Shown here one piece after another: positions 3,095 to 39,284 of a stretch of 45,335 bases of DNA. The notes under the pieces were generated by a model. That model was given only the letters and a program-made list of their open reading frames with translations. It was not told the origin of the DNA and searched no databases. The DNA comes from Scenedesmus sp. PABB004 (Eukaryota). Position numbers and translations under genes: made by a program. Numbering within the stretch: position 1 is the stretch's first letter; each line of letters starts with the position of its first letter. Location of the stretch: positions 62,001 to 107,335 of the forward strand of contig JABVCE010000048.1 in assembly GCA_014905635.1 (NCBI GenBank), in the 5' to 3' direction.

Positions 3095-6000
3095 ATGCTC
3101 GCGCCGCCCGGCGCCTGCGCGCTGGCCGCGGGCCTCGCGCCGGCGCCCGGCGACGGCGCGGCGGAGCTGCTCGCCAAGCAGCGCCAGCTGCTGCTGCTGC
3201 GCCAGGTGGGCGCCGGGACGAGGGCCCGGTGGCCGCCGCCGCGCCGCCCGCTGCGCGACGGCGGCGGCTGCTGCGAGCGTGCGCCGCTGCTCTGTCGAGC
3301 GGCTCGTGGCACCCTGCCCGCGGCGCCGCAGATGTATGCGGCGTGGCTGGCCGCGGCCGAGGAGCAGGAGGCGCCCCCTGACGACGCGGCCGCGACGCCC
3401 GACCAGCTGCGCGGCGGCGCGCGCCCCGCCGGCGGAGCCCGAGCGCAAGCTTACCCCGGCGCCGTTGCCGGCGGAGGAGCAGCCGCAGCAGCAGCTGGCG
3501 CCTCCCAGGCCCGCCACGCACAAGCAGCTGCTGTCGCGGCTGCTGGGACCCGGCGGCGCGGCCGCGCCGGGCGCGCCCGAGCAGCCGCCGAGCTCCGCGC
3601 CCGTGCCACAGCCGGCGCCAGCGGCGCCCGGCGGCGGCAGCGCGGCGCTGGCGACGCTGCTTAGCGTGCGGGGCAGCAGCGCGCGGGGCCGAGCAGCCGC
3701 AGCAGCAGCAGCAGCAGCAGCAGAAGCAGCAGCAGGGCGCGCGCGACCCGCCGCAGCCGCACGGCTGCGGCGCGTACCACCCGCGGCAGCAGGGCCGGCG
3801 GCGGCGTCTGGCGGAGCAGCAGCCGCCTGCGCACGGCGACGAGGCCGCCTGGCAGCCTGCGGAGCACGGCCTGCTGGACGCGCAGTCGCAGGCGGCGGCG
3901 CACACGAGCGCGCCGCGGCTGCGCCACGCGGCCGCGGTCAGCCCGCCCAGCCCGGCGGCCGGCGGCATGCGCACGACCTGGCTGGCGCCCCCACCGCCAG
4001 CACAGCAGCTGTTCAGTCCTCGCACCGCCACGCACGCGCCCGCTGCGCCAGAGGTGGCCAGCTCGCCGCCCGGCGCGGGCAGCTGGCAGCAGGAGGTGCG
4101 GCAGCGGCCGCCAGAGCAGCAGGGGCCCGAGTGGACCTCGTGCGAGGGCACGCCCTCGCAGCTGCCGCCCGGGGCGGCCGCGGGCGGCGGCAGCGCTGCC
4201 GCGGCGGCGGCAGGTGCTGGGCAGCACGCGCGCCATGCAGAGCAGCCCGCAGCGCCGGGCCTGCAGGGCGACGACTCGTGCACGCCGCTGGCGGGCCTGC
4301 CCGGCCGCCTCCCGTCGGGCACGGTGCCCTGCACGCCCTGCAGCTGCGCGGCGCTCGGCTCGTTCGTGGCAGAGTCGCCCGGCATGCCGCCACCAAGCAC
4401 GGGCGGCGCGGCGGCCGGCGGCCTGCCGCTGCTGCCGGCCGAGGCCAGCCCGGCGATGGTCGCGGCGACGCCCATGGGCGCCGCCGCCGCCGGGGGGGCA
4501 GCCCCAGGACGAGCTGCCGCTCGCCGCAGCGACGCCGGCGGCGGCGGCCACGCCAGCAGCGCAGCCCTCAGCAGGAGGACCTGGCAGCAGCGCTGCCGAG
4601 GCGTCAGCACCGCAGCAGCTGCAGCTGGCAGCGGCGCCGGCCGGGCCAGCCCCATCCAGCGCCAGCGTCGCGCTGCGCCGCGGCCAGCGGCGCAGCGTGT
4701 CGGTGCAGCTGGGGCAGCCTGTTCTGCACATCACGGCGTGCGGGCAGCAGTGCCTGGTGCTCACGCAGCGCGCCGGCGGCGCCGGCGGCGGCGCGGCGGA
4801 CCTGCTGGGCCTCCGGGTGCAGCAGCAGCAGGAGGGGGGCGGCGCGTGCGGTGTGTGCGTGAGCATCGAGGGCGCGACGGCAGTGGTGGTGCTGCCGGGG
4901 CAGCCCGAGGTGGCGGGCGCGCAGCTGGCCAGCAGCGTGAAGGTGCTGCCGGCCCTGCAGCCGCACGAGCAGCAGGAGCAGCAGGAGCAGGAGCAGCGGG
5001 AGCGGTGTGCCCAGGCCGGCCCTCTGCTGGCGGTGGCCCTGCCGCTGGAGGTGCAGAGCATTGGCGCGGACGGCCAGCCCGTGCCGGCCGCCGGCGCGCC
5101 GGGCGGGGCGCGTCGCCTGGCGCGGCGGCGAGCAGCACGCCAGGCGCAGCGGGCGCCGGCGCAACGCCCGGCAGCGCCGGCGGCGTGCGGCGCCTGCGCA
5201 CGCTGTCGCAGAGCGCTGGCAAAGCCAAGGCGCACGCGGGGGCCGGCGGCGCCGCTGGCAGCGCGGCGGGCGGCGGCAGGCAGGGCGTCTGCATCTACCG
5301 CCTGACCCCGGCGCTGCCGGGCGGCAGCGGCGCCGCCCTGCCAGTGGCGGCGGCCGCCGCGGCGCAGCCGGGCGCCGCGCTGCTGCAGACGCTGCACACC
5401 GCCGCGCCCGTCAGCTGCCTCGCGGTGTGCGAGGCGGCGCGCCTGCTCGCGGCCGCCGGCGCGGCCGGCTCCGCCTGCGTCTGGGCGCTGCGGCCGCAGC
5501 GCGGCGGCGCCGGCGTGGCCGACGCGGGCGGCGCGGTGGCGCTGCCGGCGGCCTCATACCGAGGCATAGCCTTTCCCGCCATCACCCAGCTCTGCTTCCT
5601 GCAGCAGCAGGAGCCGCCTGTGCGCGGCGGCGCGCGCGTGCTGCTCGCGGGCGCGTGCGGCCAGGGCTCCGTGGCGGTGTGGGACGTCGGGCGGCGGCAG
5701 CAGGTGGTGTCGGTGCACCGCCCCGACCTGCGCCTGCACGGCCTGCTGCCGCTGCAGCCGCCGCTGGGCCGCGGCGGCGCGCCGGCAGCCGGGCGGCAGG
5801 CCCCGCCTGACGCGCTGCTGCTGCTGGCGCTGGCGACGAGCAGCGACGGTGGCGATGGCGCGGCGGCGGCGCGCGACAGCGCCTCCCCGCCGCCGGGCGC
5901 GCCTGCGGGCGGCGCCGCCGCGCGCTGGCTGGAGGCGCTGCAGCGGCGGCGGCTGGCGCTGCGGCCGCTGCTGCTGCAGGCGCCGGGGCTGCTGCTGCCT

Positions 6001-6285
6001 GGCGCGCCGCTGCTACAGGCGCCGGCGGGCGGCGGGGGCGGGGACAGCGCCCTGGCGGGCGACGCGCTGGTCGCGGCGGCGCTGGCCGGCACGACGGCCG
6101 CGGCCGCGACCGCCGACGGCGCGCTGCGCGTGTGGGACGTTGTGAGCGGGCGGGCGCTGCTGGCGTGCGCGCCGGTCGGCGCCGGCCGTGGCGCGCTGGG
6201 GCTCGGGGTGCTGCCGCAGCCCGACGGCGGCGTGCTGCTGGCGGCAGGCTCGGCGGGCGGGCGGCTGACGCTCGTGCTGGTGTGA
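3095..6285 (+). CDS. ~1000-aa protein: N-terminal helix, long disordered Q/P/A-rich middle, C-terminal WD40 propeller (PALB2-like architecture)
   Basis: ATG 3095, GT-AG intron 3206-3331, stop TGA 6283-6285. WD-type strands SACVWAL, GSVAVWDVG, DGALRVWDVVSG, LLAAGSAGGRLTLV*. Codon-preferred frame switches at ~3420, ~3687, ~4495 and ~5108. Confidence 0.7.
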
Positions 6286-6721
6286 TCGTCGCGCGCGGCG
6301 CTGCCGGGGGCGGCAACACCGGCACTGCCCGGCGCGCGCGCCACCAGCCCGCCCGGGGCCAGGGCTGTGCGCGGCGCTTCAGCGTCGCGCTTCGGTGCTG
6401 CGCCGCAGCGGCCCTCCCGTTCACCACAGCTGCGCTGCGTAGGGATACAGCGCGTGCTTGCCGATTCGCTGCTTGCCGATTCGCTCCCGCCGCACGCCGT
6501 CCGCCGCTCCGCCGCGCCGCCGCTGCGGGCCAGCCTGCGCAACCAGCCGCGCAAACAGCCGCCCGGCGCCGCTGCCGTGCCCACCAGATCCAGGGCTGTG
6601 TGTGCAAGGGCGCGCCGCGGCGCCCAGCCAGCCTCTGCGGCCGGCAGCAGCAGCAGCAGCAGAATCAGCAGCCGCACCTGGAAGCCTCCCGGGGGCTGGT
6701 GAGGCGGGCGACTGAGGCGCC

Positions 6722-8058
6722 ATGGCGGCGGAACTGGACGACGAGTTCGCGCGGTTCGCCGCGGAGCTGAAGGCGGTGGAGGAGGCAGTGCAGCCGGCGG
6801 CAGACGGCGAAGCAGCGGCAGCGCCGGACGCGCTGCCGCCGCCCAGCCTGCCGCCGCCGGCGGTGCCGCCGCCCATCCTGCCGCCGCCGATCCTGCCGCC
6901 ACCAGCGGCACGGCCGCCCCAGGTGCGGCGCCAGGAGGGGGGCGTGCGTCGCTGCCGGCTGCGGCGACGCTGGCAGGGGCGCCAGCTCACGCGCCCGCTG
7001 CCCCTGTCCCTGCCCCTGCGCAGGCCGGCGGCAGCAGGGCGTCGGCCACCATCGCGGCCGCGCCGGCGCCGCCCAGCGCGCCACCGGCGGCTGCCACCAT
7101 CTCGGCGCCGGCCGCGCCGCCGAGCGCGTACCCGCCGTCGCAGCCGCCGCACCTCGCGCCTCCGCCGCTGATGGCGCCGCCGCCGCTGATGGCGCCGCCG
7201 CCGCACATGGTGCCGCCGCCGCACATGGCTCCGCCGCCGCACATGATGCCGCCGCCGCACATGATGCCGCCGCCGCACCTGGCGCCGCCGCCGCTGATGG
7301 CGCCGCCGCCCGCGGCGTTTGGCGGCGCGCCGCCCGGCTTCCCCGGCCCGCCCGGCGGGCCGCCCAACCCCGAGGCGCTGAAACGCCTCAAGGCGGAGCT
7401 CGTGCAGGCCAAGGCCGGCGGCGCCAAGCCGGGCGTCGCGCCCAAGGTCGCGGTGCGCGAGGCGGCGGGCAAGCGCTGGGTCGACACCTCGCTCGCCGAG
7501 TGGCCGGAGAACGACTTTCGCATCTTTGTCGGCGACCTCGGCAACGAGGTGCAGGACGAGAGCCTCGCCAAGGCGTTCGCGCGCTACCCCTCCTTCGCAA
7601 AGGCCAAGGCGCGGCGCGGCGGGGGTCACGGCGGCGGCGCCGCCGCCTCTGCCGCGGCGTCGCCTCACGCGGCGCCGCCGCCCCGCGCGCTGCATCAGGT
7701 CATCCGCGACAAGCGCACCAACAAGAGCAAGGGCTACGGCATCGTCTCGCTGCTCGACGGCAACGACTTTGCAAAGGCGCTCAAGGAGATGAACGGTGCG
7801 GCGCGCACGGCGGCGGGGAGGGCGCCGCGGGGGGCGGGGCGGGGTGCTGCACGGCGCCGCGCGGCGGGGCGGCGGGGCGGCCGAAGCGCGGGCCCCGCTC
7901 GCCGGCGGCCGGCCGCTCACGCGCGCCGCGGCGGCGTGGGCGGCGGCGGGTGCAGGCAAGTACATCGGCAACCGGCCCTGCAAGCTCTCCAAGTCGACGT
8001 GGCACGAGCGCGCCGCGCTGCCGGTCAAGGGCGGCGCCAAGCGCAAGGACGCGCCGGG

Positions 8059-8089
<31 letters not shown>

Positions 8090-8170
8090 GGCGGCGGGCA
8101 GCCCAAGGCCAAGGCGCCCAAGCTCGGGCCCAAGGCCAAGTACCACGTCGCGCTGCCGCGCCAGCACTGA
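6722..8170 (+). CDS. RBM42: RNA-binding protein 42-like (single RRM, proline-rich N-terminus)
   Basis: WVDTSLAEWPENDFRIFVGDLGNEV...AKAK|VIRDKRTNKSKGYG...KEMNG|KYIGNRPCKLSKSTW. Introns 6923-7023, 7609-7698 (GC-AG), 7796-7955. Confidence 0.92.
7144..7311 (+). repeat. Coding tandem repeat, (M/L)(A/M/V)PPP(H/L) units, mostly 18-21 nt
   Basis: atggcgccgccgccgctg / atgatgccgccgccgcac units within RBM42 exon 2. Confidence 0.85.
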
Positions 8171-8372
8171 GGCCGTAGGCCGCGCGTGTGCGGCCACGCT
8201 TTGATCGCCCCGCGCACTGAGCGCGCCCCCGCCGCGAGGCGGGCGCGCCGCACCGAGCCAGGGGCTCAGTCGGTGGACGCGCGGGTGGAACGCTCCGCGT
8301 GCCGCCCCAGCCGTTACCGCCAGCGCGCCGACAGCCCGCTCCGGCCGCGCGCGCGGCCCAGCCTCGGCCGCC

Positions 8373-9663
8373 TCAGCCGCCCTGCGGCGGCGGGCCGTCC
8401 TCGGCCAGCAGGCGCCCCGTCCAGTGCAGGTGCGCATACGCCACGCCCGAGGCGGCGGTGGTGCCGGCGATGGCCAGCTCCAGAGCTTCCAACGCCTCCC
8501 CGCCGGGCACGCCCTGCCACTGCTGCGTCATGCAGCCTGCCACGAGCAGCAGCACGAGCGCGGTGTTGACCTTGCTCACCAGCAGCGGCCGGATGGCGGG
8601 CAGGCCCGGCACGGCGGCGGCGCGAACTCCGCCGTCCCCGCCGCCACCAGCGCTGCCGCCGCTGCTGCTGCTGCCGCTGCTGCCGCCGCTGCCGCCGCTG
8701 CCGCCGCCGCTGCTGCCGGCGCCGCCGTCGACGTCGAAGAACGCGGCCGCGCCCGGCCAGGTGCCGCCAAACATCGCGAGCCTGTAGCGCGCCATGCCCG
8801 CGACCTGCGCGGCGTCGCGGCCGACCACGAGGCCCGCGAGCCAGGCCGGCAGCAGGCCCTGCCAGCCCAGCGCGCCGACGACCGCGCACACAAACGCCTT
8901 GTCTGCCAGCGGGTCGAGGTAGGAGCCGAGCTTGGAGGTGTGGCCCAGCCGGCGCGCGAGCGCGCCGTCCAGCCAGTCGGTGGCCTGCGGCGGCGGCGCG
9001 GCGTCGGCGGGCGCGAGCGGCGTCGGCGCGGCGCGGGCGGCAGCGCGGCCGCGGGCGCACGGCCGCGGGCGCGGGCGCGCCGCCGCGCACCCCGGCCGCC
9101 GCAGTGAGTGCCAGCGCCGCCGGCCACTGCTGCGTCGCGACGAGGTAGGCGGCCCACGGCGCGGACGCGACGCGCGACAGTGACATCAGGTTGGGGAGCG
9201 AGGCGAACGACGAGCCCGCCGCTCGCTCCGGGCGCGCCGCGCTGGCGCCGGGCGGCGCGCCGCCCGGCGCGGCAGGCTGCGCCGGCGCCGCGCCGCGGTC
9301 GCGCGCCGCCGCCGCCCGCTGCCGCTCCTGGCGCTCGCGCGCGTCGCGAAAGCCGCGCCGCTGCTGGTGCTGCCGCGCCGGCGCCGGCGGCGGCCAGGCG
9401 CCGAGCGCCCGGCGGCACGGCGCTGTCTGCTCGAGCGCCGCGCCGGCCGCCGAGCGCTGCAGGCCCGGGGCCCACTGCCGCCACGCGTGCCCCGCTGGCC
9501 GCTCCGGCGGCGCCGTGCTACAGAGCCGCTGCTGACCGTCTGGTGGCGGCACCGTCGGCCCCGCCTGGCTCGCCGGGCGGCCCGCCGCCGCGGCCGCCGG
9601 CAGCAGGAGCGGCACCGCGCCCCGCCAGCGCCGCGCCGCCTGCGCCGCTGCCAGCGGCAGCAT
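8373..9663 (-). CDS. CDP-alcohol phosphatidyltransferase, cardiolipin synthase (CRLS1/CLS)-like, with R/A-rich putative organellar presequence
   Basis: SLPNLMSLSR...AG|ATDWLDGALARRLGHTSKLGSYLDPLADK (CDP-OH-P-transferase motif) and RPLLVSKVNTAL. One intron 8985-9090; stop 8373-8375. Confidence 0.88.
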
Positions 9664-13443: not shown

Positions 13444-15673
13444 TCACGCGCCGCCGCCGAGCTCGCGCTTGCGCCCGTGCAGCGCCTGCACCTCGTTCAG
13501 CCACTCGCCGCAGCTCTTGCCCGCGACTGCGGCGGCGGCCAGGGGCGGCGGGCGGTCGGGCGGCGGCGGCGCAGCCCGCGCGCGGCAGTTGTCGCGGCGG
13601 GCGCACTCACACTTGAGCTGCGGCAGCAGGCGCTGCGCGGGCATCTCCCAAAAGTGCGCGATGTCGGCCGCCACCTCGGCGCGCGCGTGCGCGCGCGCCG
13701 CCTGCCCCGCCTCCAGCTGCGCCTGGAGCCAGGGCAGCACCGTCTGCTGGTCGCGCGCGCGCAGGGCGCCGACCTGCGCGCGGCGCGCGCCGCGGCACAG
13801 GGCAGCCGCGTGAGGGGCAGCCCCGCGCGCACTGCACGCGCCCGCCGCCGCCGCCGCCCACGCGCACGCCGCACCTGCTCCTCCAGGCGCGCGGCCGCCT
13901 CCGCCGCAGCGGCGCCGCTGGCCGCGGCGTCGCCCGACAGCGCGCCCAGCCGCTCCAGCTGCGCCTGCAGCTGCCGCAGCTGCTGGCACTCGTCTGCGCG
14001 CGCGCGCGTGGGCGGCGGGGCGGGCGTCCGCGAGCGGCGGCGCCACGGACGCCGCGGCAGCGGGGCCGCGCCTGCCGCGCCGCGCTCGCCGCGCCGCGCG
14101 CCCACCTGCCACCTCCAGCAGCAGCGCGGCGGGGCAGCGCACGGGCGCGGCCGCGTCCACTGCGGCGGCGGCGCGCAGCGCGGCCACCGCGGCGCCGTCG
14201 ACGGGCTCCGCCGCGGCGCCGCCGTCGGCGTGCAGCCCCGCCCCGGCGGCGCCGCCGTGCTCGCCCGCCGCCGCGACGAGCGGCTTGCGCACGGTGGTGG
14301 GCCGCCCAGCCTGCGGCACGCGCTGCGCGGCCAGGTGCAGCCGGGCGAGCGTGGTCGCGGGGCCAGCGGGCCCGCCGCCGCCCGCGTCGTCGCCGCCCGC
14401 GGCGAGCCGCCGCGGCGGCGCGAGCGCCGCCACCGGCAGGCGCGCCACGACGCCCGCCTCGCGCGCGAGCTCGTCCCGCCCCGCCGCCGCCGCGGCCGCC
14501 GCCGCGCCGCCCGCGGGCGCGAGCTGCGCGCGCAGCAGGTCCAGCACGCCGTCCTGCTGGCCGCACAGGGCGGCGAAGAGGGACATGTTGTGTGATGCGA
14601 CGCCCCACAGCAGGCGGTTGAGCGCCTGGTCGGTCGCGACCGCGGCCTCGATGCGCGCCCACTTCTCCTGCAGCTGCGCCTCGGCCTGCAGGCACGCGTC
14701 CACGTCGGCCTCAAACTCGCGCTTGCGCTGCTCCAGCACGCCGAGCTCGCCGCGCAGCCCCTGCGCGCGCAGCCACAGCCCCGCGAGCTCCGCCTCCCAG
14801 CCGGCGCCGCCGGCGCCGCCGGCCGCGAGCTGCTGCTGCAGCACCGGCGTGGAGCCGAGCAGGCGCGTGAGGTCGGCGTCGGCCGCCGCCGCCGCCGCCG
14901 CCGCGGCGCGGGCCTGGACGTAGAGCTGGACGTGCATCTGCTGCCGCGCGCGCACGAGCAGCTCCGGCGGCTGGAAGCCGGAGCCGCCCTGGTCGCGGCC
15001 GCCAGCCCGGGCGTCGGGCGTGCCGCCCCGGGGCGCCGTCGTCCAGGGCAGGGAAAAGGGGCACGCCGCCGCCGCCGCGTCGCCGCCCGCCCTGGCGCCG
15101 GCGGGGTCGTCCCCGCCGGCGCCCCAGCCCAGCGGCGCCAGCAGCGCGCCCTCCGCCTCGTCCAGCACCGTGGCGAGCTCCGCGCCCGCCTGCGCCGCGA
15201 GCTCGCCCGCGCACGCGAGCAGCGCCTCGGGCGGCTCCTGCAGCAGCACCAGCGCCGCGCTGCGCAGCGCCTCCGAGGGGGCGTAGCCAGACAGGGGGCT
15301 GCAGCGCGCGTGCGGCTCCCCGCCCGGTGCCGCCGGCAGCGCGAGCTCCTCCCAGCTGCGACCGCTGCCGTCCTTGCCCGGCGCCGCCGCGGCCGCCTGG
15401 TCCGCGGGCACGGCGCGGGGCGGCGCGTCGCCCGCCGGCGCCGCGCCCAGGCCGCCCAGCGTCTGCGTCGCCAGCTTGCCCTCCAGGGCTGCTATGAGCT
15501 CGCCCCTGATGCCCGCGCTGACCGCCTGCAGCTGCTGCAGCGTGGCCTGCAGCCGCCGACCGCCGCCTGCGTGCGCGCGTGCGCGCGGGCGGCAGCAGTG
15601 CAGAGGGCGGCGTGTGAAGCGTAAAACGGCGGCGCGGGTGCGGCATTGCTGTCGCGGCGGCGCCGTGGCGCCC

Positions 15674-15709
<36 letters not shown>

Positions 15710-16316
15710 ACCTGGCGCGCTGCAGCGCGCGGTGGCGAGCTCAGCGACCGACTGCAGCTTGGCGAGCCGCGCGCGCAGCTGAGGCAGCAGCTCGCGCACG
15801 CGGCGGCTCGCCGCGCGCAGCACCAGCGCCTGCATCTGCGCGTCCGCCAGCTCCTGCCGTGCCAGGCGCGCCTCGCCGTGCTGCTCCGCGGCGTCGTGCA
15901 CGCTGCCCTCGACCGCCGCCTGCGGGCGGGGCGCGCGCGTTGTTGAGCCAGCCGCCGCAACGCGCGCACCCCCCAGCGCCACCTGGCCGGCGCGCCGCGC
16001 ATCGTGCGCCACACACCTGGAAGGAGGCCAGCGTGCGCTGCAGCGCGGCGGCCTGGCCCTCGAGCGCCGCGAGCGCCGCGCGCTGCTCCGCCGCCTGGCG
16101 GCGCCGCTCCGGCGCGGCCGCCGCAGCGGCCGCCTCGCGCCGGTGCTTGGCCAGCACCGCCTGCACGTGGCGCGCGGCCTCGGGGGTCTTGTAGTTGGCC
16201 AGCAGGAACTCCCAGAGGCCCTTCAGGTTGCCGCGGCAGTTGGCGGCCAGCGTGGCGTCCGCGGCGGCATTGTAGCCGAGCTGCGTGTGCAGCCAGCGCG
16301 CCACCTCGCGCTCCAT
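13444..16316 (-). CDS. HAUS5: HAUS augmin-like complex subunit 5 (AUG5)
   Basis: N-terminus WLHTQLGY...CRGNLKGLWEFLL and C-terminus FWEMPAQRLLPQLK|FAGKSCGEW match the plant AUG5 pattern; coiled-coil body; five GT-AG introns; stop 13444-13446. Confidence 0.8.
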
Positions 16317-17656
16317 GGCGCCGGGGCGGCGTGCGGGGCGCGCAGCGGCGGCGGCAGAGGCCGGGCAGCGGTCGCGGTCGGTGCAGCGGCGCCTGGTGTG
16401 GGCGGATGCGCGCGCGGGCAGGCCCCGATCAGCGGGCACGCGCGGGCGGGGCGGGTGGGATCGTCGCTGTGGGGCTCGGCGCCGCCGCGACAGCTGACAA
16501 CTTGAACTCGCCGCCGCTTGAACCTCGCGGGCCGCTCCTCGACGCACGTTTCGCTGCTTACCTTGGGCACTGAGCGACCCCACGATGCCCGCAGGATCAG
16601 GATCCAGCACGGCGCCACTCTCGCGCCTCCGCCAGCGCCCGCTCCGCCGCCACGGCCGCCCGAGGGCCGCGTCGCGCCGCGCCGCGCGGCTGCAACAGCC
16701 TGCAGGCTGTTGCCTCAACAACTCTCCGGTGCTACAAGCATCCCTGCGCCGAGCCGCCAGCCGCCCCCGAACGCCCAGGGCGCGCGCGCGCACACGTCGC
16801 GCGGCACGCCGCTGCAATGCCTGCCCAGTCCTGCCTGCTGGCCGCGCCCTCACGCCGCGCCGCTCGCATGCAGCCGCAAGAATCAAGTCCAAGGAAGGCG
16901 CCGCCCCGAACAATGTGCGCGCGGGCCGCCGAGAGCACGCGCGCGAGCCGGGAACGTGGTGGTGCGCGGGCGCTGGCGGCGGCGGCCGCGCCGTCGCCAC
17001 TGGCCGCCAGCCCTCTCCAGCCGCCGACCGGGGCCCAGGCTGCTGGGCCGCCGACAGGTCATCGCCCGCCCGCGTGCGCCTGCTTGCGCAGCAGGCGCGC
17101 GGCGCTTGTGCAGCGCCGCACCCGCCCGCGGGGGTGCAAGGCATGATTGATGTGTGAGCGTGTGTATGCGTGTGCGCGCGCGCGTGCGCGTGCGTGTGCA
17201 TGGTGTCCGCCTCCTGCCAGCCCCGCACCCCCCTGCCCCGCGCGCCGCCGGCCCTGCGGCCGGCCGCCGCGCGCAGCCAGCCCAGCACACCCCACCGCCG
17301 CGCGAGTCTGCTCTGGTCAAGCTACCGGCGAGGCCCCTCTGGTCTATGGCAGCGCTCAAAAGCGCGCGCGCGGCCGGGCCCCTGTGCAGGCGGGCGGGGC
17401 GCCGGCGCGTGCGGCGGCGCCGGCGCCACGCAGGCGCGGCGCGGGCGCCGGCCGGCATGAAATGCTACAACAACAGGGACCGTCCCAGGCAGCGAGCGGC
17501 GTGGACCGCGGCCCGGCACTCCGTGGCGATGTACAGGCGCCGGCCGGCGAGGCGAGCCCCGCGCGTGCCGCGCGCCACCGCTGCAGCCGCACGGGCGGCG
17601 CCCCTTGGCCCTCCCTCGCTGGCGAGCCGCCAGCCGCGCGCGGGCGGCGTGGGCCG

Positions 17657-24400: not shown

Positions 24401-27400
24401 GAGACTTAATCCAGTCGGCCTCCTCGTACACGAGCTGAGCGCAGCAAGGGGCGGCACCACGCGGCGGCGGCACGCAGGGCGGCGGCGCGGCACGTCGGCG
24501 GCGCGGGGAGAGAGGCGCGGGGGGAGCGCCGCGGGGCTCGCAGCCCCGCCCCGCCGCCGCCGCGCCGGCGCCGGCGCCGCATGGGGCGCAGCGCAGCGTG
24601 CTGCGGCGCGGCGCGGCGCGGCGCGGCGCGGCGCGCGCCTTCTGGCCGGTCGCCGCGTCGCCCTGGATGCTCTCTGTTGTGAAGAACACCTCCGCCGTGC
24701 CCAGCAAGTCGTCGGTGGGGCAGAGGCGGTCGTAGTCATACACCTGGCGGCAGGGAGGGGCAGGGAGCGGAGGGGAAGGGGGCAGGGGTAGAGGTCGGCG
24801 CGCGCGCAGGGGCGGGGGCGCGCGCGGCCCCCACGCCGGCACGCCCTGGACGCCGCCGCCGCCGCCTCGCCGCCGCCTCGGCGCCGCCCTGCCGCCGTCC
24901 CAGTGCCGCGCCGCAGCGCGCGCCTTGATGCTGAGATTCTGTCCCACCAGGTCGTCCACGAGTAGGAAGAACTCCTCGTTGTAGGTGGGGTTGTTGCTGC
25001 TCTTGACCGTCTTGCTGCGCTGCTGCCGGCCCTCGCGGATCTGCGGGCGCGGCGGCGGCGGCGGGTTATGGCACGCGCGCGCGGGCGGGGGGTTGGCGCC
25101 GCCCGCACGGCCCTGAGCGCCCCCGAGCCCCCTCTGAGCCTCTGAGGTTTAGGGAGCTGCCTGCGCCCTGGCGCACCTCGAACACCACGTAGGGGTCGCC
25201 CTTGGTGAGAAAGTCGGTCGTCTTCAGGTTCTCAATGCGCTGCGCGCCGGCGCGCGGGCGCGGTCAGGCGCGGTCAGGCGTGGCCGGCGCGGTCAGGCGC
25301 GGTCAGGCGTGGGCGGCGCGGGCGGTGCGGCGCGGGCGCGGGCGCGGCGGCCCCGGCCAGGCGCCCGCCCCGGAGCGTGAGCCGCGCGCGCGGGGGCGCG
25401 CACCTGCAGCGTGACGTGCACCATGCCCTTGGGCGGCGGCGGCACGCCGTAGTTGGTCATGAGCGGCACGGAGACGCTGTTGGGGTAGAGCATGACCTGC
25501 TTCATCACGTACTGAGGAGAGAGAGAGAGAGAGAGAGAGGGTGCGCGTGTGCATGCGTGTGAGTGCGCGTGAGTTCGTGTGGGTGTGAGTGTGTGTGAGT
25601 GTGGCGTGGAGGGTCGAGGTGACGGCGGCGGCGGCCGTGCGCGCGCGCGCGCGCTCTGCGTGCACGCGTTTGTGCACGCGCGCTGTGTGTGCTGCGGGTG
25701 TGCGGCGCGGCGGCGGTGGCGCGCGCGGCCGACGCACCCCGATGATGAACTTGGTCGCCTCCTTGATGCCCGGCAGGGCCATGAGGTCGGGGCCGTTGAA
25801 GAGGCGCAGCACAAAGTCGACGTGCGGCACGCTCAGCAGGGACACGGTCGCGCCGCCGATGCAGGGCACGGTGTCGACCATGTCGAGCGTGATGCGGCTG
25901 ACCGCCTTGAACGTCACGTGGCTCACGCTCACTGGGACAACCAGCCGCACAGGGCCGAGGCGGAGGTACACCTGGACGTCGACCTTGTGTTGTTGTTGTT
26001 TTGGGGGGGGGGGGGGGGGTGGAGGAGGAGCGCGGAGAGGGCGGAGAGGAGGGCGGGCGGCGGCGTGGCGGGCCGTGGGCGCGCCGCGCCTCCCCTCGCG
26101 CGCGGCGCGCGGCGCGCGGCGCGCGGCGTGCCCCGCGCGCGCGCGGCGGCTGTGCGGCGGCGCGCGCGGCGTGCCCGGCGGCGGCGCGGCGGCGCGCACC
26201 ACCATGTTGCTGCCCCATATCGCGGGCGTCTCTATGATGCACGAGTCGTCGTTGGTGTGGTAGACCTTCATGCCAGCCACGCGCACGGGGTGGTTGCCGA
26301 GCGTAAAGTACTTCTCTGCGGCGCGTGCGGGGCGGGGGGGGGGGGGAGGCGCGTCCGCGGGCGTGGGCAGGGTTTTGTGCTCGCGTGCGTGGGCGTGCGG
26401 GCGCGGGGATCGGTGGGCGCGGGGGCTGGGTGGGCGCAGGCCGGGGCGGAGGTGCGGGCGGGCAGGGCGCGGCGGCGACGCCAGCCGAGGCAGCCAAGCC
26501 AGCAGGCTGGCTAGCCCCCTCCCCCCTCCCTAGTCGCCCGGTCGCAGCAGGCCTAGTTCACGACACACGGCCAGCCTTGACCCGGCGATCAGGGAGGCAG
26601 GCGGCGCGCCAGGGCAGCCAGGCGGCGCAGGCGGAGGGCGGCCAGCCGCGCCGGCCCGGCCGCGACCGCGCAGCCCGCCGGGCGGCGGGCGGCCAGGCGG
26701 CCAGGCGGCGCACCCGTGATGTGGGGGTCGAGGTGCTCCGCGTCCATCAGGCTGTACGGCCCCAGCGTGATGTCGTCCAGGATGCCCAGCACGCCCGGGA
26801 TCTGACCGCACCGCAGCGGCGGCGGCGGCGGCGTGAGCCGCAGCGCTCGCTGCTGCCGGCGCCGCCCGGCTGCAGCGGCTGCTCCGCTGCGGCCACCGCC
26901 GCCACTGGCCGCCGCGCCCGCCGGCGCCGCTCCCGCCGCCCGCGCCGCCACCCGCCGCCCGCCGGCGACAGCTCACCCCGTTGAGGATGTTTTGGATGAT
27001 AGGCTTGACCGTCACGATTACCTGCTTCAGTATGGCCGTGGTGAGCTTGGGCCACATGAGCCTGATGAGGCGGTTGATCATCACCCACTGCGCCGGCGGC
27101 ACCCCGGCGGGCGCGGCGGCGGGCTCGGCGGCGGCGGCATCTCGCGGGCGCTGCTGCGTGCGGCGGCGCCCCGCCCGCCGGCGCTGCGCCGCCGCTGCCC
27201 CGCGCGGTGGCGGCGGCGGCGGCGCACCCGGTCGTAGTCGGGCCAGGTGGTCCACTCGGGCGTGAGGGGGACGATGTTGCGCATCTCGTCGGTCACGTTG
27301 GCGGCCGCGGGCGTGCGGATGTTGTCGTTGCGGTCCGCCGCCTCCACGATGAAGCCGTAGTCCTTTGGCCGGTCGCCCGAGAACACCACCGACCCCACCT

Positions 27401-27546: not shown

Positions 27547-27929
27547 GGCGCCTCGATCCCGCCGGCCGCGCGCCCACGTAGAGGGCTGTGCGCGCCGAGG
27601 GGCGGGGCGAGCCCGAGCGAGGGCTGTTGCCGCGCGCGGCGCCGGCCGACGAGGGCGCGGTGGCCGCACTGGACCGCACAGACGCCGGACTGGTGGGCAC
27701 ACGCGCGGGCGCGGCGATGGGGGCGACCGGGGCGCGGTGCTGCACCCCGATGCACTGTCAGGGCACATGCGATGTTGTTGACACATCCTGCGGCCCCGCA
27801 CCGCCTCCCTCGCGCTGCCAGGGCTCGTCCAGGCACGATCGAAGCCCGCTGGGCAGGCGTGGAGCAGCCTGGGCGCGGCAGCGCCGTCCGCATCATCGCA
27901 TCAGCGCTGCCCGCGCCGACGCGTGCGCC

Positions 27930-29248
27930 ATGGCGGCGATGCACCCGTACTACCCGGTCGACCTGGAGCTCCCGGGCGTGCAGCCGCTGGCGCTGCCCTT
28001 CGAGCGCATCCTGGCGGCCTTCTTCGCCGCCTGCGCCGTCATGCTCGCGGCGGGCTGGCACGTCACAGGCACGGCGCGCATGGCCCGCCGCCGCGCCGCC
28101 CCGGCGCCCCGGGGAGACGGCCGCCGGCCCCGGCGCGCGCCGCGAGCGCGCCGCGCCCCGCCGCGCACCGCCGCAGGCCGCGCCAAGTTTCTGTCGCCCG
28201 GAGAGCGCGCGATGGCATGCTGGTTCCTCTGCTCCGGCCTCATCCACCTCATCATCGAGGGTGCGGGACGGACCCCGCCGCGCGGCGCGCCAGGGCACGG
28301 GGGCAGCAGCGCGGCGCGCCGCCGCCGCCGGCGCAGCAGCAGCAACAGCGCCGGCCGCCGGGGGCGCCGCTGCTGGCTCACGGCCCGCCCCCGGGCCGCG
28401 CAGGCAACGTGGTGCTGAACAGCCGCTTCTACACCGACACGTCGGGCAACATCCTCAACGAAATCTGTGCGCGCCGCGCCGCGCCGCGCCGCACCGCCGC
28501 CTCCGCCGCCCGCCCGCGCCGCCGTCCCACGCCGCCGCGCCCGCCTCCCGCGCCGCCTGCGCCGCCCCGCGGCCCGGCAGGGAAGGAGTACTCCAAGGCG
28601 GACAGCCGCTACGCGACGCGTGACGATTTCGTCATCTCGATGGAGGCCGTGACGGCCTTCCTGGAGGGCCCCGGCTGCCTCGCGATCGTGTGGGCGATGC
28701 TGCGCTCCAAGCCGTGGCGCCACACCGCGGTGCTCGCGGTGTCGCTGGGCCAGCTCTACGGCGACGTGCTCTACTTTGGCACGTGCCTCCACGGCGGTGC
28801 GCGCGCGCCCGCACAGCGCCGGCGGCGGCAGTCACCACGCGCGCCGCGCCGCCGCCGCCGCCGCCGCCGCTCACCCCGCCCCGCCGCCCGCGCCGCGCCC
28901 CGCCGCGCCCCGCCGCGCCGCCGCGCCCCGCCGCGCCCCGCCCGCCAGGCGTGTCGCGGCACTCGCGGCCGGAGGCGCTCTACTTTTGGTTTTACTTTGT
29001 GATTGTCAACGCGGTGTGGATCGTGGTCCCGCTCGCCTGCATCGCCCACGCGGCGCGCGCGATCAACGCCGCGGTCGCGGGGTGCGCGCCGCGCGGGACG
29101 GGAGGGCAGGGACGGGGCGCGAGGGCGCGCGCGGCGCGCAGCGTGTGGGCAGGGGAGCTGGCTGGCGCGCGGGCCCTGACGCTGGCGCCGCCGCCGCTGC
29201 CGCCGATGCAGGATCGAGACGGGCGGACCGAGGAAGAAGCGCGCCTGA
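27930..29248 (+). CDS. EBP: Sterol delta8-delta7 isomerase (EBP/HYD1 family)
   Basis: HPYYP; WFLCSGLIHLIIEG; W|KEYSKADSRY; MEAVTAFLEGP; GQLYGDVLYF; YFWFYFVIVNAVWIVVP; C-terminal KKRA* ER-retrieval motif. Five introns, the first (28069-28176) GC-AG. Confidence 0.95.
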
Positions 29249-29688: not shown

Positions 29689-29858
29689 CTATTGACGTCC
29701 CGCGCCGCGCTTGCTGCCAGCGCCCGCCCCAGCCGCGGCGCCGCCGCCGCTGCCGCCGGCGCCTGTCCGCGCCGCCGCCGCCGCCGCTGCCGCCGCTGCC
29801 ACCATCGCTGGCGTCGCGAGCTGGAACGGCGCCACCGGCATCGCGATGCGCTGCGGTG

Positions 29859-29893
<35 letters not shown>

Positions 29894-30847
29894 GTGCCGC
29901 TGCCGCCGCCGGCGTCGCCGCCGCCGCCGCCGCCGCCGGGCGGGTCCAGCAGCTCCACGAGCAGGTGGCCCGCCATCTGCCCCGCCCCGCCGCCGCCACG
30001 CAGCGGCGTGCAGCTGTGGTACTCGAAGCAGCCGCCTGGCGGCACGACCGGCTGCTGCCCCACGACCGCGTTGTCCGGCGCGAGCGGCACAAAGCCCTCC
30101 AGCTCGCCCGCCGCGTTGCTGACGACCCAGCCGCGCCCGAGGACCTTGACCGCGTGATGCCGCGCGTTGGCGACGCGGATGCGATAGCTGAACCAGTGCT
30201 CCGGCTGGCCGCCCTTGCCCGCGTCGGTGCGCGTGTGCGCTGCTGTGGCCTCGATCGTGACGCCCTCGGTCGTCGCGCTGCTGCTGCACGCCTCGAGGTA
30301 CGCGAGCGCCGGCAGCGCGCGCAGCGCGGCAAAGCCCTGGTCCAGCGGCGCGAGCGGCGGCGCGCCGCCGTCGCCGGCGCCGCCGCCCGGCGCGCCGCTG
30401 CCGGCGCCGGCGTGGGCGCGGAAGTTTGCGCGCACGAGCTCGCGCAGCCCCGCCGCGCACAGCGGCAGCTGCTCTGCGCCCGGCGCGACGGCGAGGCCCG
30501 GCACCAGCGCGTTGAGGCACTCCAGCTGGTACGCCGCACCTGCGCGCGGCGCGTGCGCGGCGCTCGCGCCCGACGTGCGGCCGCGCGGCGGCAGCGGGCG
30601 CCGGCGCCCGGCGCCCAGCGCACCCGACTTGGCGCGAGCGTTGTAGCTGCCCGCCGCGCTCGACACCGGCGCGCGGATGCTCAGGCGCATGCCAGGGTGC
30701 AGCCGCTCCAGCTGCGCGCGGGCCTCCTTGAGCAGATGCCTGCGGCGGTCGCGGCGCCGGCGCCGGCGTGGGCGGGCGTTGCTGCCGCTGCTGCCGCCGC
30801 GGGGTGCGCGCGCGCCTGTAGAGGTAGATGGCCGCCTTTGGCTTCAT
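29689..30847 (-). CDS. LYR-motif + ApaG (DUF525) domain protein
   Basis: Exon 1 MKPKAAIYLYR joined by GC-AG intron 30740-30815 to HLLKEARAQL...; ApaG motifs SSATTEGVTIEA, WFSYRIRVAN, VKVLGRGWVV, VVGQQPVVPPGGCFEYHSCTPL, GQMAG. Confidence 0.82.
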
Positions 30848-31283
30848 GGCGGGACCACTAACGCGCGCAGGGCCCGCTGGCGCGAGGCGCGTGCGCTGGA
30901 GTCGGCGGCGGGGCGGGAGATGGGCGCTGCTGCTGCGGTGCCGACGTGGCCCGTGTGCTTGCTCGGCGGGGCCGATCGGCGCTGGGAGGTTGCACTGGCA
31001 GCGTTGCACAGCGGCCACGACAGCTAACTCCTCTGCTCGACAGCAGCAGGGCCGGCGCGCAAACTCAAACCCCGGCACCCACGCGCCGCAGCCTCGCGCT
31101 AGCGGCGCCACACCTCCCCGGCCACACACGAGACAAGCAACACTGGATGGGGTTTGGTGAATACATGCCTCCGCGCAAGCCCCGCCACCGAGAACCATGC
31201 GTGCGCGCATGCGCGCGCCCCGCGTGCCGCCGCCGCGCGAACGTCGAGTCAAACGTCCCCCCCGGGCCCCCTCCGCCGCGCCG

Positions 31284-32108
31284 TCAGCTGTGCGTGTCGA
31301 GCGCCATTCCGCGCTGCTGCTGCTGCTGCGCGAGCGCCGGCGCGGCGCCGCCGTGCGCGGCGAGGCGGTCGTTGCGCGACAGCGCGGGCAGGTTGTAGCG
31401 CACGCCCGGCTGGGTGAGGTGGCTGGTGAGGTTGAGCGCGCTGAGCATCATGTCGCCGCGCTCGTTGACGCGCACCATGCACACCGCCCCGTTGGCGAGG
31501 TCGATCGCGCGGAACTGGCGCAGCGGGAGGCCGAGGCTCGTGCACAGCAGCGCGCGCAGCAGCGACTTGTGCGTGATCACCAGGTGGCTCCCGCCCGGCG
31601 CGGCGAGCAGGTCTGCGCGGCGCGCGGCGGGGCGCGGGGCGCAGCGTGCGCGCGCATCGGCGCGCCGAGCGGGCGCCGCCGCTGCCGGTGCAGGCGCCGC
31701 CGCCGCCGCCGCCGCACCTTGCCACGCGCGGCGCGCCTGCCTGAACGCGTCCAGCACCGGGTAGCGGCCGTCGAGGCAGAAGCGCTCCGGCTCCTCGCGC
31801 CACACGCGGTACAGCTCGGGGTGCGCCTCGGCGATGTCGTCTGCAGGCGGCGGCGCGGCGCGCCGGGCGGTGCGCTCGCCGGGCAGCCCGCGCGCGCGCG
31901 CTGCCGCCTGGCGCGCGGCGCGGCGCGACGCGGCGCTGTGAGCCTGTGGGTCGCCGCGCACCGTTGCGCAGGCCCTGGAACCAGCCCAGGTCCACCTCAC
32001 TCAGGTGGGGCAGGTAGTGCGGCGCCGCGGCGCCCCCGGCCTGCCAGGGCGCCCACACAATCTCGGCGGTCTGCCGCGCGCGCGTGTGGGGGCTCGAAAA
32101 GCAGCTGC

Positions 32109-32151
<43 letters not shown>

Positions 32152-32670
32152 AAATTCGGTCGGCGCGGCGCGCGCGCGCGTCCGGCGGCACGCGCGCAGG
32201 GCGAGCAGCAGGCGCCGCGCGGCCGGCGCCCCACACCTGTCAAAGTAGAGGCCGTCCAGCGCGGCGCGCGCCTTGGCCGCCTGCTCCCGCCCCAGCGGCG
32301 TTAGCTCGCTCTCGTCGGTGTTGCCCTGGATCCGGCTCTCCTGGTTCCACGTCGACGCGCCGTGCCGCACGAACACGAAGCACTTGGGCTGCCGCAGCTC
32401 GGGGCCGGCCTTCACGGGCTGCAGGAAGCTCTCCGTCGATGCGTGGTGCGCCGCGTCGGCGCCGCCGCGCGGCTGCTGCTGCTCCGCCGGCGCCACCGCG
32501 GTGCGCAGGAGCGCGCTGCCGTCCACGCCGCCGCCACCGGCACCCAGCAAGCAGCGGCGCGCGACGCTGTGGGGGCGTGCTGGCCGCGCCCGGCTGCAAC
32601 CGCCCGCCGCCGCCGGCGGCGCCGCGCCGCCGGCCAGCGGCGGGCGCCGCACTGCAGCGTGGGCCTGCAT
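31284..32670 (-). CDS. Histidine phosphatase / phosphoglycerate mutase family, CA1P-phosphatase-like, with putative plastid transit peptide
   Basis: FVRHGASTWNQESRIQG...LTPLGREQA; CFSSPHTRARQTAE; LSEVDLG; LVITHKSLLRALLC. Three GT-AG introns. Confidence 0.88.
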
Positions 32671-33674
32671 GACCACCTCGGCGTGTCGTGTCGGGCGGGG
32701 GCGGGCGGGGTGGGCGGGCGCCGGGTCGCACGGCCCGAGAGCAGCACACAGATGCAGCGAGCTGCCGCCGCCGCTCCGGCTGCACTGAGCCCCGGCGCGC
32801 CTGGCCCGTCCTGCGCTGTGTGCAGGCGATGCAGCGGCACCGGAGCCGGACGGTAAGTCACCGCGGTTGTCGCGCCCGCAAAGCCCTGCCGCCGCTGCTG
32901 CCGGGCGCGGCTCGCGTCGGCCGCTCGCTCGCTCGGTCGGCGCCCTGTGGCCTTGCACACATCCGTCCCTCTCCCTCTCCGAGCCGGGCGGCCGCAGGGC
33001 CAGAAGCTGCTGGCCAAGTCGTCGCAGCCGCTTCACGCGCGCACACCACACTCGGGCGCGCGCGGCCGCGCGCGCCGCTGCATTGCTGCAGCCCTAGAGT
33101 TTGACAAACTTTTCCGGTTTCTGACCTGTCTCGCCTCCGGTTGGGTTTAGAGTTGGGTGTTTGGCGGTGGCCCGAAGCCACCACCAAGACTGGGGGAACA
33201 CCGCGGCGCGCGCGCTCGCACGCGGCACCCGCGCGCGGCCGCTCGCGCGGCCGCTCGCGCGGCACCCGCGCGGGAGCACGGCTGTGCTCCGCTGCTGGGG
33301 GGGCCGGCCTGGGGCCGCGACAGCACCCACCAGCGCATGCGCGGGGTGGCAACGTGCACCAGCATTGTGTTTGTGCGCGCAGCACCGCATCATCAACATC
33401 CGTCGGGGTTTGGCGTGGATGCCGTGGGGGGAGCCGTGGGGTTGGGTGACTGCACAATCGATCACGGCGGGGCGCCTGCCGCCATGCGTGCAGCAGCGCC
33501 ATGCCCACGACCAAGCGATTTGTAATACAACTGCAGGGGAGATCGCCGCCTGCCTGACGCGCATGCTGCCAGCCCGCCGCGCGCGCGGCCGGCCGGCGTT
33601 GCGCGGGCCAAAAACTGCGCTCCCTCCTAGGTGTGCAGAGCCAGCAGGGTAGCTTAAGCTAGTGGGCGAGGCGC

Positions 33675-35248: not shown

Positions 35249-36120
35249 GGCGCGCGCGAGAGAGTGGTAGGCGTCACCGCGTCAGACAGCAGGGGAGGCG
35301 CGCCCAGCCCGCGGTGACACGCGCCCGCCAACCCGATCGGCGCCGTGGGCCGCATCCCCGGGCCAACGCTGGGCGACACGGCCCGGCGGCGCGGCGATCT
35401 GGGGCCGGGACGCGCGGGGCTGCCGGTCGTCCAGTAGGTTGGCGCGCCCTCCCCGCGCGCGCGGCGTGGCGGGAGGCCGCGACGCTCGGTAAGGGGCGAC
35501 CACGCGCAGGTGCTGCAAAACGAAGCTCGTGCCCCGCCAGCAGCGCCGGGGGCGCCGCGCGCGCAGCGGTTGCGGCGGCTGCGGCGGTTGCGCCGCGCAC
35601 AGCTCAGCGCGCCGCCGCTGAGGGCGTGGCACCACCGCCGTAGCTGGGGCGACGCACGCGGCGCGTCCGCCCGCATCCGGCCGGCCCGCGCGCGCCGGCG
35701 GCAGCACCGCTGGTGACGCCCCGCGCGGGCACGCGGCTGCACCTGGTCTGCCTGACCGCGCGCCCTCGCGCGCCGTCAGTGTCAGCGTCAGATGCCAGGC
35801 GGCCGCCGCGAGCGCGCGCACGTCGACACGCGCGGCGCGCGGCGCCGCGCTTTTGCCGCGACGCGCCGCAGTTAGGGCGGCCGTCCGCCTCACCGCATCT
35901 GGGCAGCGCGCCACTGCCACACCCAACGGAGCGCGCCCGGAGGTCGGCGACAGCTGCGTCGCGCCGCGCCGCGCGCCGGAGCAGCGGCGGCGGCGCTGCG
36001 TGCCCGCGCCAGGCTGCGCCAGCCCTCAGCTTGGTGCGGAGGCCTGTGCCTGCAGCGGTCATGGTGTAGGCGGCGCTCACGCCGCGTTCCGGGGGCCGCC
36101 CGTGCCCCGCCGCGCGCGGG

Positions 36121-38655
36121 ATGGACGGGCGATGGCCGGACGTGGACATCATCCACCAGCTCATGCTGGCCGCCCGCTCGTCGGTGAGGGACGCCGCCAG
36201 ACCTGCCGTCGGGCAGGCGCGAAGCGCCGCCGCTGCCGCCGCCGGCGCTGCCGCTGCTGCTGCCGCCGCTGCTGCCGCCGCTGCTGCCGCCGCTGCTGCT
36301 GCCGCTGCGGCCCGGGCAGCGGCCTGGCGCGCTCACCGCGGGCGCTCCGCCACCCAACGTCGCAGGAGGGACCCACCGGCGCCTCGGTGCCAGGTGGCGG
36401 CGCGGCGGGCGCGGTGCAGGCGGGCGCGGCGGCGTCAGCGGCGGTGCAGCAACAGCAGCAGCAGCCCGCAGGGCTGCGCCAGGAGCAGGACGTGCTGGCC
36501 CTGCTGCAGCGGCAGCACCAGCAGCTCGTGCTGCGCCAGCAGGCGCAGGCGCAGCAGCGGGCGCAGCGGCAGCCGTCGCTCGCCGGCGACGTCCCCGACG
36601 AGCTGCTGCGCCAGCTCGCGGCGGCGACAGAGCAGCAGCACGGGCAGCCCACAGACATGCAGGTTGACGGCGCCGTGTGGCACGCGCCGGCGGCCGGCCA
36701 CCCGCCCGGCCCTGGCGGCGGCGCGCCCGCGCCCGCGCCGGCGGCGCCCACGCCAGCGCAGCTGCGCAGGCATGAGCTCCAGGCCGCGCTCGCGGCCAGG
36801 GAGCGAGCGCGCCTGCTGGGCGTGGACGAGCAGCTGACGGTGCAGCAGGCGGCTGCGCGGCAGCACCTCGTTGCGCAGGTGCGCCTTGACGAGCTGCTGG
36901 AGCAGGCGCAGCAACAGCAGGCGCAGGCGCAGGCGCAGCAGCAGCAGCAGCAGCAGCAGCAGGGGCGGCAGCTGGAGGCGCAGCCCAGCGGACCCGACCC
37001 GGGCCGGCAGCCGCGCCACCCGCTCCTGAGCCAGCAACTCAGCCAGCAGCTGAGCCAGCAGCTTGTGCAGACGGCGCCCGCCGGCGCGGCGCGCGACTTT
37101 CGCGGCCTGCGCACCGTGAGCAGCGGCGCGCTCGGCCGGCAGCCGAGCCTGGGCGGCGGCGCGCCGGGGCGCGACATCGACGTCGCGGCCCTCTTCCCCG
37201 AGGCCGCCGCGGAGTACGGGCGGCAGCAGATGCAGAGGACGCTCGCGGCGGCGCTGCAGGAGCAGTTTCCCCCGCTGCGCGGGCCGGGGCTGCAGCCGCG
37301 CGAGCTGCAGCTGCTGCAGGAGCTGCAGCGCGCGCAGCAGGCGCAGCAGGCGCAGCCGCCGCTGCTGCGGGACCAGGAGCGCTTTGAGCAGCTGCAGCAG
37401 CTGCTGCGGCATCACGCGGCGGCCGGAGCGGAAGGGGGCCAGCGCCGGCTGCCGGCCTCCCTGCAGGGCTCGCTGCCCAGCACGTGGGGCGCGCAGGGCG
37501 GCGGGGCGGGGCTCGGCGCGCCCGGCAGCCGCTTTGGGCTCTTTTGTGGCGGCCCGGGCCCGGCGCTCACGCATGCCCAGGTCCAGGCGCAGGTCGCGGC
37601 GCTCACGGCGCACGCGGAGCGGCAGCGCGCCGCCCGGGACGCCAGCGCGGCCGCCGCGAGCGAGCCGGCGCCGGCGCAGCAGCGCCTCTCGGGTGCGCCG
37701 CGCGCCGCGCGCCGCGCCGCGCGCGGCCGCGGCCGCGCCCTCAAGCCGCGCCGTCGCGGCAGGCGCCGAGACGTCCGCCGCGCTCAAGGCAGTGATGGAG
37801 GTGCTGGACATGAGCGGCGGCGACGAGCAGGAGCCGCCAGAGGCACGCATGCGCGCACGCGCGCCGCCGCCGGCGCTGCGTGCCGACCCGCCGCGCCGCC
37901 GCCGCGCCCGCCCACGGTGCGCCGCCCCGCCGCGCGCCGCGCCGCGCAGTCGTCGCTGCTCGTGTCGATGCTGCGCCACCAGAAGCTCGCGCTCGCGTGG
38001 ATGTGCCGCCGCGAGCGCAGCCACCGCGTGTCTGGCGGCATCCTGGCGGACGACCAGGGGCTGGGCAAGACGGTGAGCGCCGGGAGGGGGCCCGCGGGCG
38101 CCCGAGCGCGCGCGCGTGCGTGCCTCTATGCCGGGGCGGGGCGGCGCAGGCGCGGCGGCAGCCCGTCAACCTCTCAACCCTGAGCCCATCCACGCCCCCT
38201 AACCCCTCTCAAACCCCAGGTGACCACGATCGCTCTCATCCTCGCCCACCCGCGCGGCGGCGACTACCTGCAGGTGCGGCCGCCGCGCACGCGCGCGCCG
38301 CGGCTGCGTGGATGGCCATGGCTGGGCGTGGGCGGGCGGGCGGGATGGCGGGCGCAGGGCCGTCGCCGCCTGGGCGGCGCGCGCGCAGGGCGTGCGCCCA
38401 GGCCCGCACCCGCCGCCGCGGCTGCCGCGCCCGGGCGCAGGACATCGCCGAGGCCGCCGCCGACGAGGACGAGGACGCGGAGCTCGACGCGCTGCTCGCT
38501 GCGGCGGGCGCGGGCCGCGGCGGCGCCGGCGCGCTGCCGGCCGCCGCGCCGGCGGCGGCGAAGAAGCGCGAGGTGCGCGCACGCGCGCGGCTCGCGACGG
38601 CCGCCGCGCCTGGCCGCCTCTCCCCTTTGTCCAGCGCGCAGCGCGCCGGCCCGCA

Positions 38656-38697
<42 letters not shown>

Positions 38698-39284
38698 CGT
38701 GTCCCTTTTGCCCCCACCCGCAGGCCGCGGAGGTGATTGAGATTGACATGGACGACAGCCCCACCACGTCGGACGCGGCCGGCACGGTCAACGGCGCCGC
38801 GCCGCACCCGCCCGCCAAGCGCGTGCGGCACGAGGGCGGCCCCGCCGCGCCGGGCGCGGCGCCGGGGCCGGGCAGCACCCTGGCGGAGCACGAGGTGATG
38901 GTCATTGGCAGCAGCAGCAGCGGCAGCGGCAGCGGAAGCGCCGACGACGGCAGCGACAGCGACGACGACGCGCTGGAGCTGGTGGGGGCCCCTCCGCAGC
39001 CGCACACGGCGGCGGCGCGGACGCCTTGAGCCAGCTCGCGGAGGCGCTGGCCGCGGCGGTCGCGCCGCGTCAGGCCGCCGCGATGGATGTCGCGCGGCGC
39101 GCCGCAGAGGCGGTCGCGGCATTCACGTCCGGGCCGGCGCAGGCGCTGGAGGTCGACGCCAGCGGCGCGCGCTCGCCCCTGGTCGCGCGGCTGCAGCAGC
39201 AGCTGCAGCAGCAGCGGGATCTCAAGCCGCGAGCGCTGGCGGCGGGGCAGGCGGCGCAGCTGCTGCAGCAGCAGCAGGAAGAGC

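Follow-up and report, generated by a model that had tools for sequence, protein, structure and literature searches.

A predicted chlorophycean WD40 protein with a PALB2-like layout encoded in the Scenedesmus sp. PABB004 genome

The window analyzed here is a 45,335-nt stretch of the green alga Scenedesmus sp. PABB004 (contig JABVCE010000048.1, positions 62,001–107,335). Its positions 3095–6285 carry a gene on the + strand, which an initial annotation, made from the letters alone, had proposed to be a PALB2-like gene. The window has about 80% G+C from end to end and all six reading frames stay open for kilobases, therefore open frames are uninformative in this DNA. The coding strand was read from the codon-position composition instead. 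Within 3095–6285, every third position of the + strand has a G+C content (GC3) of 0.94–1.00 and the preceding, second codon position has the lowest, a pattern that marks + strand coding where the genome is GC-rich. Minus-strand coding was rejected, because the lowest G+C content falls on the + second codon position and it is the + strand that the homologues match. The gene is real and nuclear, and consists of a short first exon, one GT-AG intron and a single long exon of about 2.95 kb (Table 1).

The start of the gene is placed at the ATG at 3095, the earliest one past the in-frame stop codon at 2996–2998, and the product of exon 1 matches the N-termini of two related proteins, P0026 and P0065. 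The second exon begins at 3332 and opens with MYAAWLAAA. The splice from 3205 to 3332 is supported by three kinds of public models: the spliced junction corresponds to an uninterrupted LLRAAYDVRMRAA in P0065, the equivalent intron is kept unspliced in the P0026 model, and the models of P0007, P0023 and P0020 begin at the exon 2 methionine. Counting 37 aa from exon 1 and about 983 aa from the long exon, the product has about 1,020 aa. The last eight residues before the stop codon TGA (6283–6285) are GRLTLVLV, and the homologue P0004, which folds as a propeller, has a similar ending (GQLTLVLV). The coding range, the intron at 3206–3331 and a size of around 1000 aa had all been put forward in the initial annotation, and each was recovered here.

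The codon phase switches four times within the long exon, as judged from GC3, so the remark in the initial annotation that frameshifts break the gene also holds. Sequence comparison nevertheless indicates that all of the frame segments form one protein, because the tblastn matches of Tetradesmus obliquus P0007 (1241 aa) are collinear over three different frames, with its residues 209–381, 560–714 and 853–1019 corresponding to 3724–4167, 4676–5068 and 5386–5766, respectively. The segment 4499–5092 is matched in tblastn by P0007 (560–714), P0023 (570–721) and P0022 (42–141). In blastp with the composition correction off, the segment 3688–4497 matches P0007 residues 201–486 (E = 1e-22) and P0023 (E = 9e-24). 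The segment 3402–3686 aligns through its HKQLLSRLLGP block to P0007, P0023, P0040, P0032 and P0035 (blastp, E = 1e-6 to 8e-8).

A word-based search brought up P0004; P0005 and P0006 together make up a further member, one half each. When 1.84 billion representatives were searched exhaustively with a profile, 147 proteins matched at E ≤ 1e-3, of which 32 also passed 1e-10 and 8 passed 1e-30. About 35 of the 147 proteins, whose alignments span one long stretch or two, were taken as the family. The other matches are generic multi-repeat WD40 proteins, each of which hits a single WD repeat of the profile 5–15 times; three of them were scanned, and all have strong canonical WD40 repeats, together with protein-kinase domains in two and TIR domains in the third. 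Named family members are Chlamydomonas eustigma CEUSTIGMA_g320.t1, T. obliquus A0A383WAA3 and Raphidocelis subcapitata Rsub_01199, which are annotated as "hypothetical" or "uncharacterized". All members that could be placed taxonomically are green algae. Judged by these alignments, the gene product belongs to a conserved protein family of chlorophycean algae that as yet has no name, with sizes of about 1,020–1,250 aa.

At their 5' ends, many of the family's public gene models appear to be incorrect. As described above, the P0026 model retains the intron that divides the helix motif and the models of P0007, P0023 and P0020 begin at the exon 2 methionine; the P0045 model begins within the helix motif. 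The models of P0004, P0008 and P0042 consist of the propeller only; P0042 also exists in a 1504-aa form, P0158.

The domain layout was studied with AlphaFold 2 models of two members. For P0004, modeled with the family alignment, a closed propeller was predicted with a predicted TM score of 0.78 and a mean predicted local distance difference test score (pLDDT) of 74. In the model of full-length P0047 from C. eustigma, a helix at residues 26–53 (pLDDT 71–87) is followed by about 380 unstructured residues and a propeller at 435–974 with long loops. These models indicate that the domain is a divergent seven-bladed WD40 propeller with a closed fold, which reaches the last residue. The generic WD40 profile PF00400 is matched at E ≤ 1 by only 4 of 36 members; the C-terminal piece from the window scores 22.2 bits (E = 2.1e-4), below the 27-bit cut-off. 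The predicted order of an N-terminal helix, a long disordered middle and a C-terminal WD40 propeller is the one that the initial annotation had described.

The disordered middle of the family contains conserved motifs, namely HKxLLxRLLxP, LLDAQSQ, QQLF[ST]PRTAT and a VVPxTP-like motif that occurs one to three times per protein. A [DE]VVPxTP-type motif was located at residues 295–300 of P0047 and 277–282 of P0045, and at 368 in P0020, 506 in P0026, 484 in P0065 and 397 in P0091. In the P0047 model, the motif forms a short strand at 294–297 (pLDDT about 53). The window carries degenerate VVPxTP-like forms at 4120–4400 (GTPSQLP, SCTPLAG and FVAESPGMP).

The N-terminal helix of the family follows the pattern LxxLxxxYxxx[LIM]. 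The motif is uninterrupted in Raphidocelis P0065 (LLAKYRKLTLLRAAYDVRMRAA) and reads LKALIQVYKQRIARA in P0047, while P0026 has both halves with the retained intron between them. It is partially present in P0007, P0023, P0020 and P0045. Conservation of the motif in related algae and its connection to the WD40 region were two points that the initial annotation had left for checking, and both were observed: in P0065, P0026 and P0047, the motif and the propeller are in the same protein.

This layout resembles that of PALB2. PMC7059202 gives human PALB2 1186 residues, with a coiled coil at 9–42, a ChAM region at 395–446 and a WD40 domain at 853–1186. The algal proteins have a comparable length (about 1,020–1,250 aa), a short helix in the first 55 residues or so, a long disordered middle and a divergent seven-bladed WD40 domain at the C-terminus, and a predicted algal model superposes on the PALB2 structure 3eu7 over 272 of 313 residues. 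The helix interface of human PALB2 is described in PMC12096946 and PMC3488246 as L9, L17, L21, L24, Y28, T31, L32 and L35, of which L21, L24, Y28 and L35 are required for binding BRCA1. The algal register of L at −7, L at −4, Y at 0 and L, I or M at +4, found in the window, P0065 and P0047, has the spacing of human L21, L24, Y28 and L32. The algal proteins differ from PALB2 in the long low-complexity loops of the propeller and in the residue equivalent to L35, and their middle region, the part of PALB2 in which the nucleosome-binding ChAM motif lies, has conserved motifs of its own. No significant sequence or profile match between PALB2 and the algal family was found in the searches that were run.

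Structure comparisons with predicted models brought up PALB2 repeatedly. In Foldseek, 3eu7 was 8th for one member (E = 4e-5) and 5th for another (E = 4.2e-7), among at least 500 matches. When P0047 was used in the ESM Atlas structure search, the PALB2 cluster came first (TM 0.53/0.52), with a score of 767 versus 604 for the second row. One family member, P0012, has a collinear sub-threshold match to the PALB2 WD40 profile PF16756 (17.7 bits, E = 0.0018, profile positions 239–318 of 347). A possible partner also exists, as BRCA2 with a canonical DNA-binding domain is reported in green algae, including Chlamydomonas, in PMC12412785, and this counts in favor of a PALB2 relationship.

Several results weigh against such a relationship. 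The PF16756 gathering score (27 bits) was reached by none of the 36 family rows scanned, two window pieces included, and 35 of them had no match at E ≤ 1. The window pieces matched only generic WD40 models of Pfam below threshold and did not match PF16756. PALB2 was not listed in PDB sequence and profile searches with the C-terminal window piece, P0004, P0047 or the P0047 helix, nor in those with the family profile (best 60 of 328 matches) and the N-half profile. The top matches of the PDB sequence searches were designer WD40 proteins, WDR5, SCAP, FBXW7 and WDR34, each through single repeats. The PALB2 coiled coil was also not found when the P0047 helix peptide was searched against the PDB with phmmer. 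The helix motif is short and its match to the PALB2 register could be chance, and the algal proteins carry Ala at position +7, where human PALB2 has L35. On the structure side, the model that the ESM Atlas gives for P0047 is of poor quality (pLDDT 0.43), the ESM Atlas feature search did not name PALB2 for P0047 or P0065, 3eu7 was 33rd of 48,161 chains in a VIA structure comparison, and PALB2 is not among the 50 entries listed by VIA for either of two models. The idea of an S/TQ cluster in the disordered region was dropped, because no enrichment over shuffles was found in any of 10 members (none below 0.05). Moreover, the profile-search matches listed included no relative from beyond the green algae.

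The leading structure scores all lie within about 2 Z units, which is nearly a tie, so the structure comparison neither refutes nor confirms PALB2. What the models depict is a generic seven-bladed propeller, which cannot assign the family. The initial annotation had expected PALB2 rather than other WD40 families to give the best profile and structure matches; other families lead, with structure scores that are nearly tied. Its PALB2 reading stands with respect to layout and helix register, and PALB2 identity was not shown by Pfam, PDB or the structure rankings.

Taking these observations together, we give a probability of about 0.45 to the reading that the family corresponds to PALB2 in green algae and acts as a bridging scaffold in homologous recombination. 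We infer the homology to PALB2, and likewise every binding partner named below. In such a scaffold, the N-terminal amphipathic helix (L−7, L−4, Y0 and a hydrophobic residue at +4) would either self-associate or pair with a coiled coil of the BRCA1 type. The disordered middle may bear short docking or regulatory motifs, such as HKxLLxRLLxP, QQLF[ST]PRTAT and the VVPxTP-like motif, and the C-terminal seven-bladed WD40 propeller would hold a peptide of BRCA2 and/or RAD51; in PALB2 itself, the WFxxL peptide of the BRCA2 N-terminus binds in a pocket between blades 4 and 5. A complex prediction for two copies of P0047 residues 1–62 gave a score of 0.23, where the mark is 0.32, and speaks neither for nor against self-pairing. 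That chlorophycean algae have a true, highly diverged PALB2 orthologue is put forward tentatively.

The strongest alternative, which is nearly as probable, is that the family is a lineage-specific chlorophycean WD40 adaptor that is not PALB2 by descent or function, and that the layout and the tyrosine-containing helix arose by convergence or coincidence. In that case, oligomerization would still be the task of the helix and peptide binding that of the propeller, in a different pathway, for example RNA processing, trafficking or ubiquitin ligase targeting. The best structural neighbors agree with this, since they are Ski8, WDR12, SEC31A, PREB, Sqt1 and Rae1 and not PALB2, and so do the weak Pfam matches to a generic propeller and the restriction to green algae among the matches listed. 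It is also in line with the literature, as PMC9792525 states that plants have no homologues of PALB2, and PMC3969565 and PMC5618535 place its origin shortly before the vertebrates. In contrast, the combination of an L/L/Y/hydrophobic helix at the extreme N-terminus, about 1,000–1,250 aa and a divergent terminal propeller has the appearance of PALB2, and PALB2 comes up repeatedly in the first rows of Foldseek and the Atlas.

Comparison with known WD40 proteins bears on the same question. For the generic seven-bladed adaptors (Ski8/WDR61, WDR12, SEC31A, PREB/Sec12, Sqt1 and Rae1), the sequence link to the algal family is limited to single WD repeats. To our knowledge, none of these adaptors has an N-terminal helix followed by a disordered linker of 500–800 aa. 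Groucho/TLE-type co-repressors and RFWD3 were considered as similar architectures. They differ from the algal family in that their Q-domain, RING and other Pfam signatures were not found in any algal member scanned.

The cause of the four frame changes is a separate matter from the PALB2 question. A run of at least four G or C bases is present in each of the four intervals, and 25 such runs exist across the 3,191 nt of the gene. Ordinary introns were rejected for changes 1 and 3, whose intervals have no GT, and they are an unlikely source of changes 2 and 4. The frame changes are probably homopolymer indel errors of the assembly. An exact 24-mer of the gene was searched in metagenome contigs and gave no matches. 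It is unlikely that the gene is a pseudogene in this genome, in which the mutations are true and a full-length protein is no longer made. Decay would fit four changes of phase within 3.2 kb, two of them without intron signals, next to an RRM gene that keeps a single frame unbroken over roughly 1 kb, but GC3 stays at 0.94–1.00 in all segments, no stop codon occurs in any inferred frame, conserved blocks are present in every segment and G/C runs of this length are usual at assembly indels.

The surroundings of the gene were also inspected. Upstream, between the gene and a possible divergent minus-strand open reading frame, lies a tandem repeat at 2739–2786 with a 10-bp unit (GCGGCGTGCG, 4.7 copies, 97% match). 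About 170 nt past the stop codon, at 6455–6485, there is an exact 15-bp tandem duplication (TGCTTGCCGATTCGC, 2.1 copies), and a TGTAA poly(A) signal was searched for in 6283–6720 without a hit. The downstream neighbor encodes an RRM protein with a proline-rich N-terminal half, in which 15/30/45-bp repeats (6822–6919) and PPPxM repeats are found, and its RRM is apparently divided by an in-frame intron. The remaining window, 8376–45335, carries ordinary intron-rich nuclear genes.

Table 1. Features of the gene at 3095–6285 and of its neighbors, in window coordinates
Feature	Position	Strand	Details
Exon 1	3095..3205	+	37 aa, first half of N-terminal helix motif, ...ELLAKQRQLLLLRQ; GC3 phase fits
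Intron 1	3206..3331	+	126 nt, GT at start, AG at end
Start of long exon	3332..3424	+	Exon 1 phase, MYAAWLAAAEEQ..., second half of helix motif; P0007 opens MYYEWMAKA
Frame change 1 (+1)	3405..3430	+	C4 at 3424–3427; GT absent from interval
Disordered segment, second phase	3425..3686	+	Conserved HKQLLSRLLGP at 3519–3551
Frame change 2 (+1)	3670..3690	+	G4 runs at 3670 and 3685
Disordered middle, third phase	3688..4497	+	Conserved blocks LLDAQSQAA, TTWLAPPPPAQQLFSPRTATHAP, GTPSQLP, FVAESPGMP
Frame change 3 (+1)	4492..4498	+	G7 run, longest in gene; GT absent nearby
Linker and first propeller blades	4499..5092	+	Blades from about 4676, SVSVQLGQPVLHITACGQQCLVLTQ...; tblastn and family alignment
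Frame change 4 (−1)	5075..5110	+	G4 at 5105–5108; homologues P0022 and P0005 run on across
Remaining propeller blades	5095..6285	+	WD repeats GSVAVWDV, GALRVWDV; C-terminus GRLTLVLV; stop TGA 6283–6285
RRM protein, downstream neighbor	6716–8175	+	PF00076, E = 1e-7
CDP-alcohol phosphatidyltransferase	8376–9185	−	
HAUS5	13447–16428	−	
C2	22291–24405	−	
SMP	25306–26529	−	
EXPERA/EBP	27782–28999	+	
ApaG	29692–30843	−	
Histidine phosphatase	31252–33093	−	
SNF2/Helicase_C gene	35622–43513	+	
EMP70	43996–45335	−	

With PALB2 reported to be absent in plants, the algal protein bears on how BRCA2 is recruited to BRCA1-marked breaks in plants and algae. The literature searched gave no account of PALB2 from an alga or a plant. 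If the algal protein is a true orthologue, the BRCA1-PALB2-BRCA2 bridge would be older than the split between plants and animals, and the accepted view that PALB2 is missing in plants and algae would reflect sequence divergence rather than true absence. The conserved algal protein, which shares its layout and helix register with PALB2, is a concrete candidate for binding assays and mutants, testable in Chlamydomonas. If the PALB2 homology fails, the gene would still represent a conserved family of algal WD40 scaffolds that lacks annotation and for which public models frequently miss part of the 5' end.

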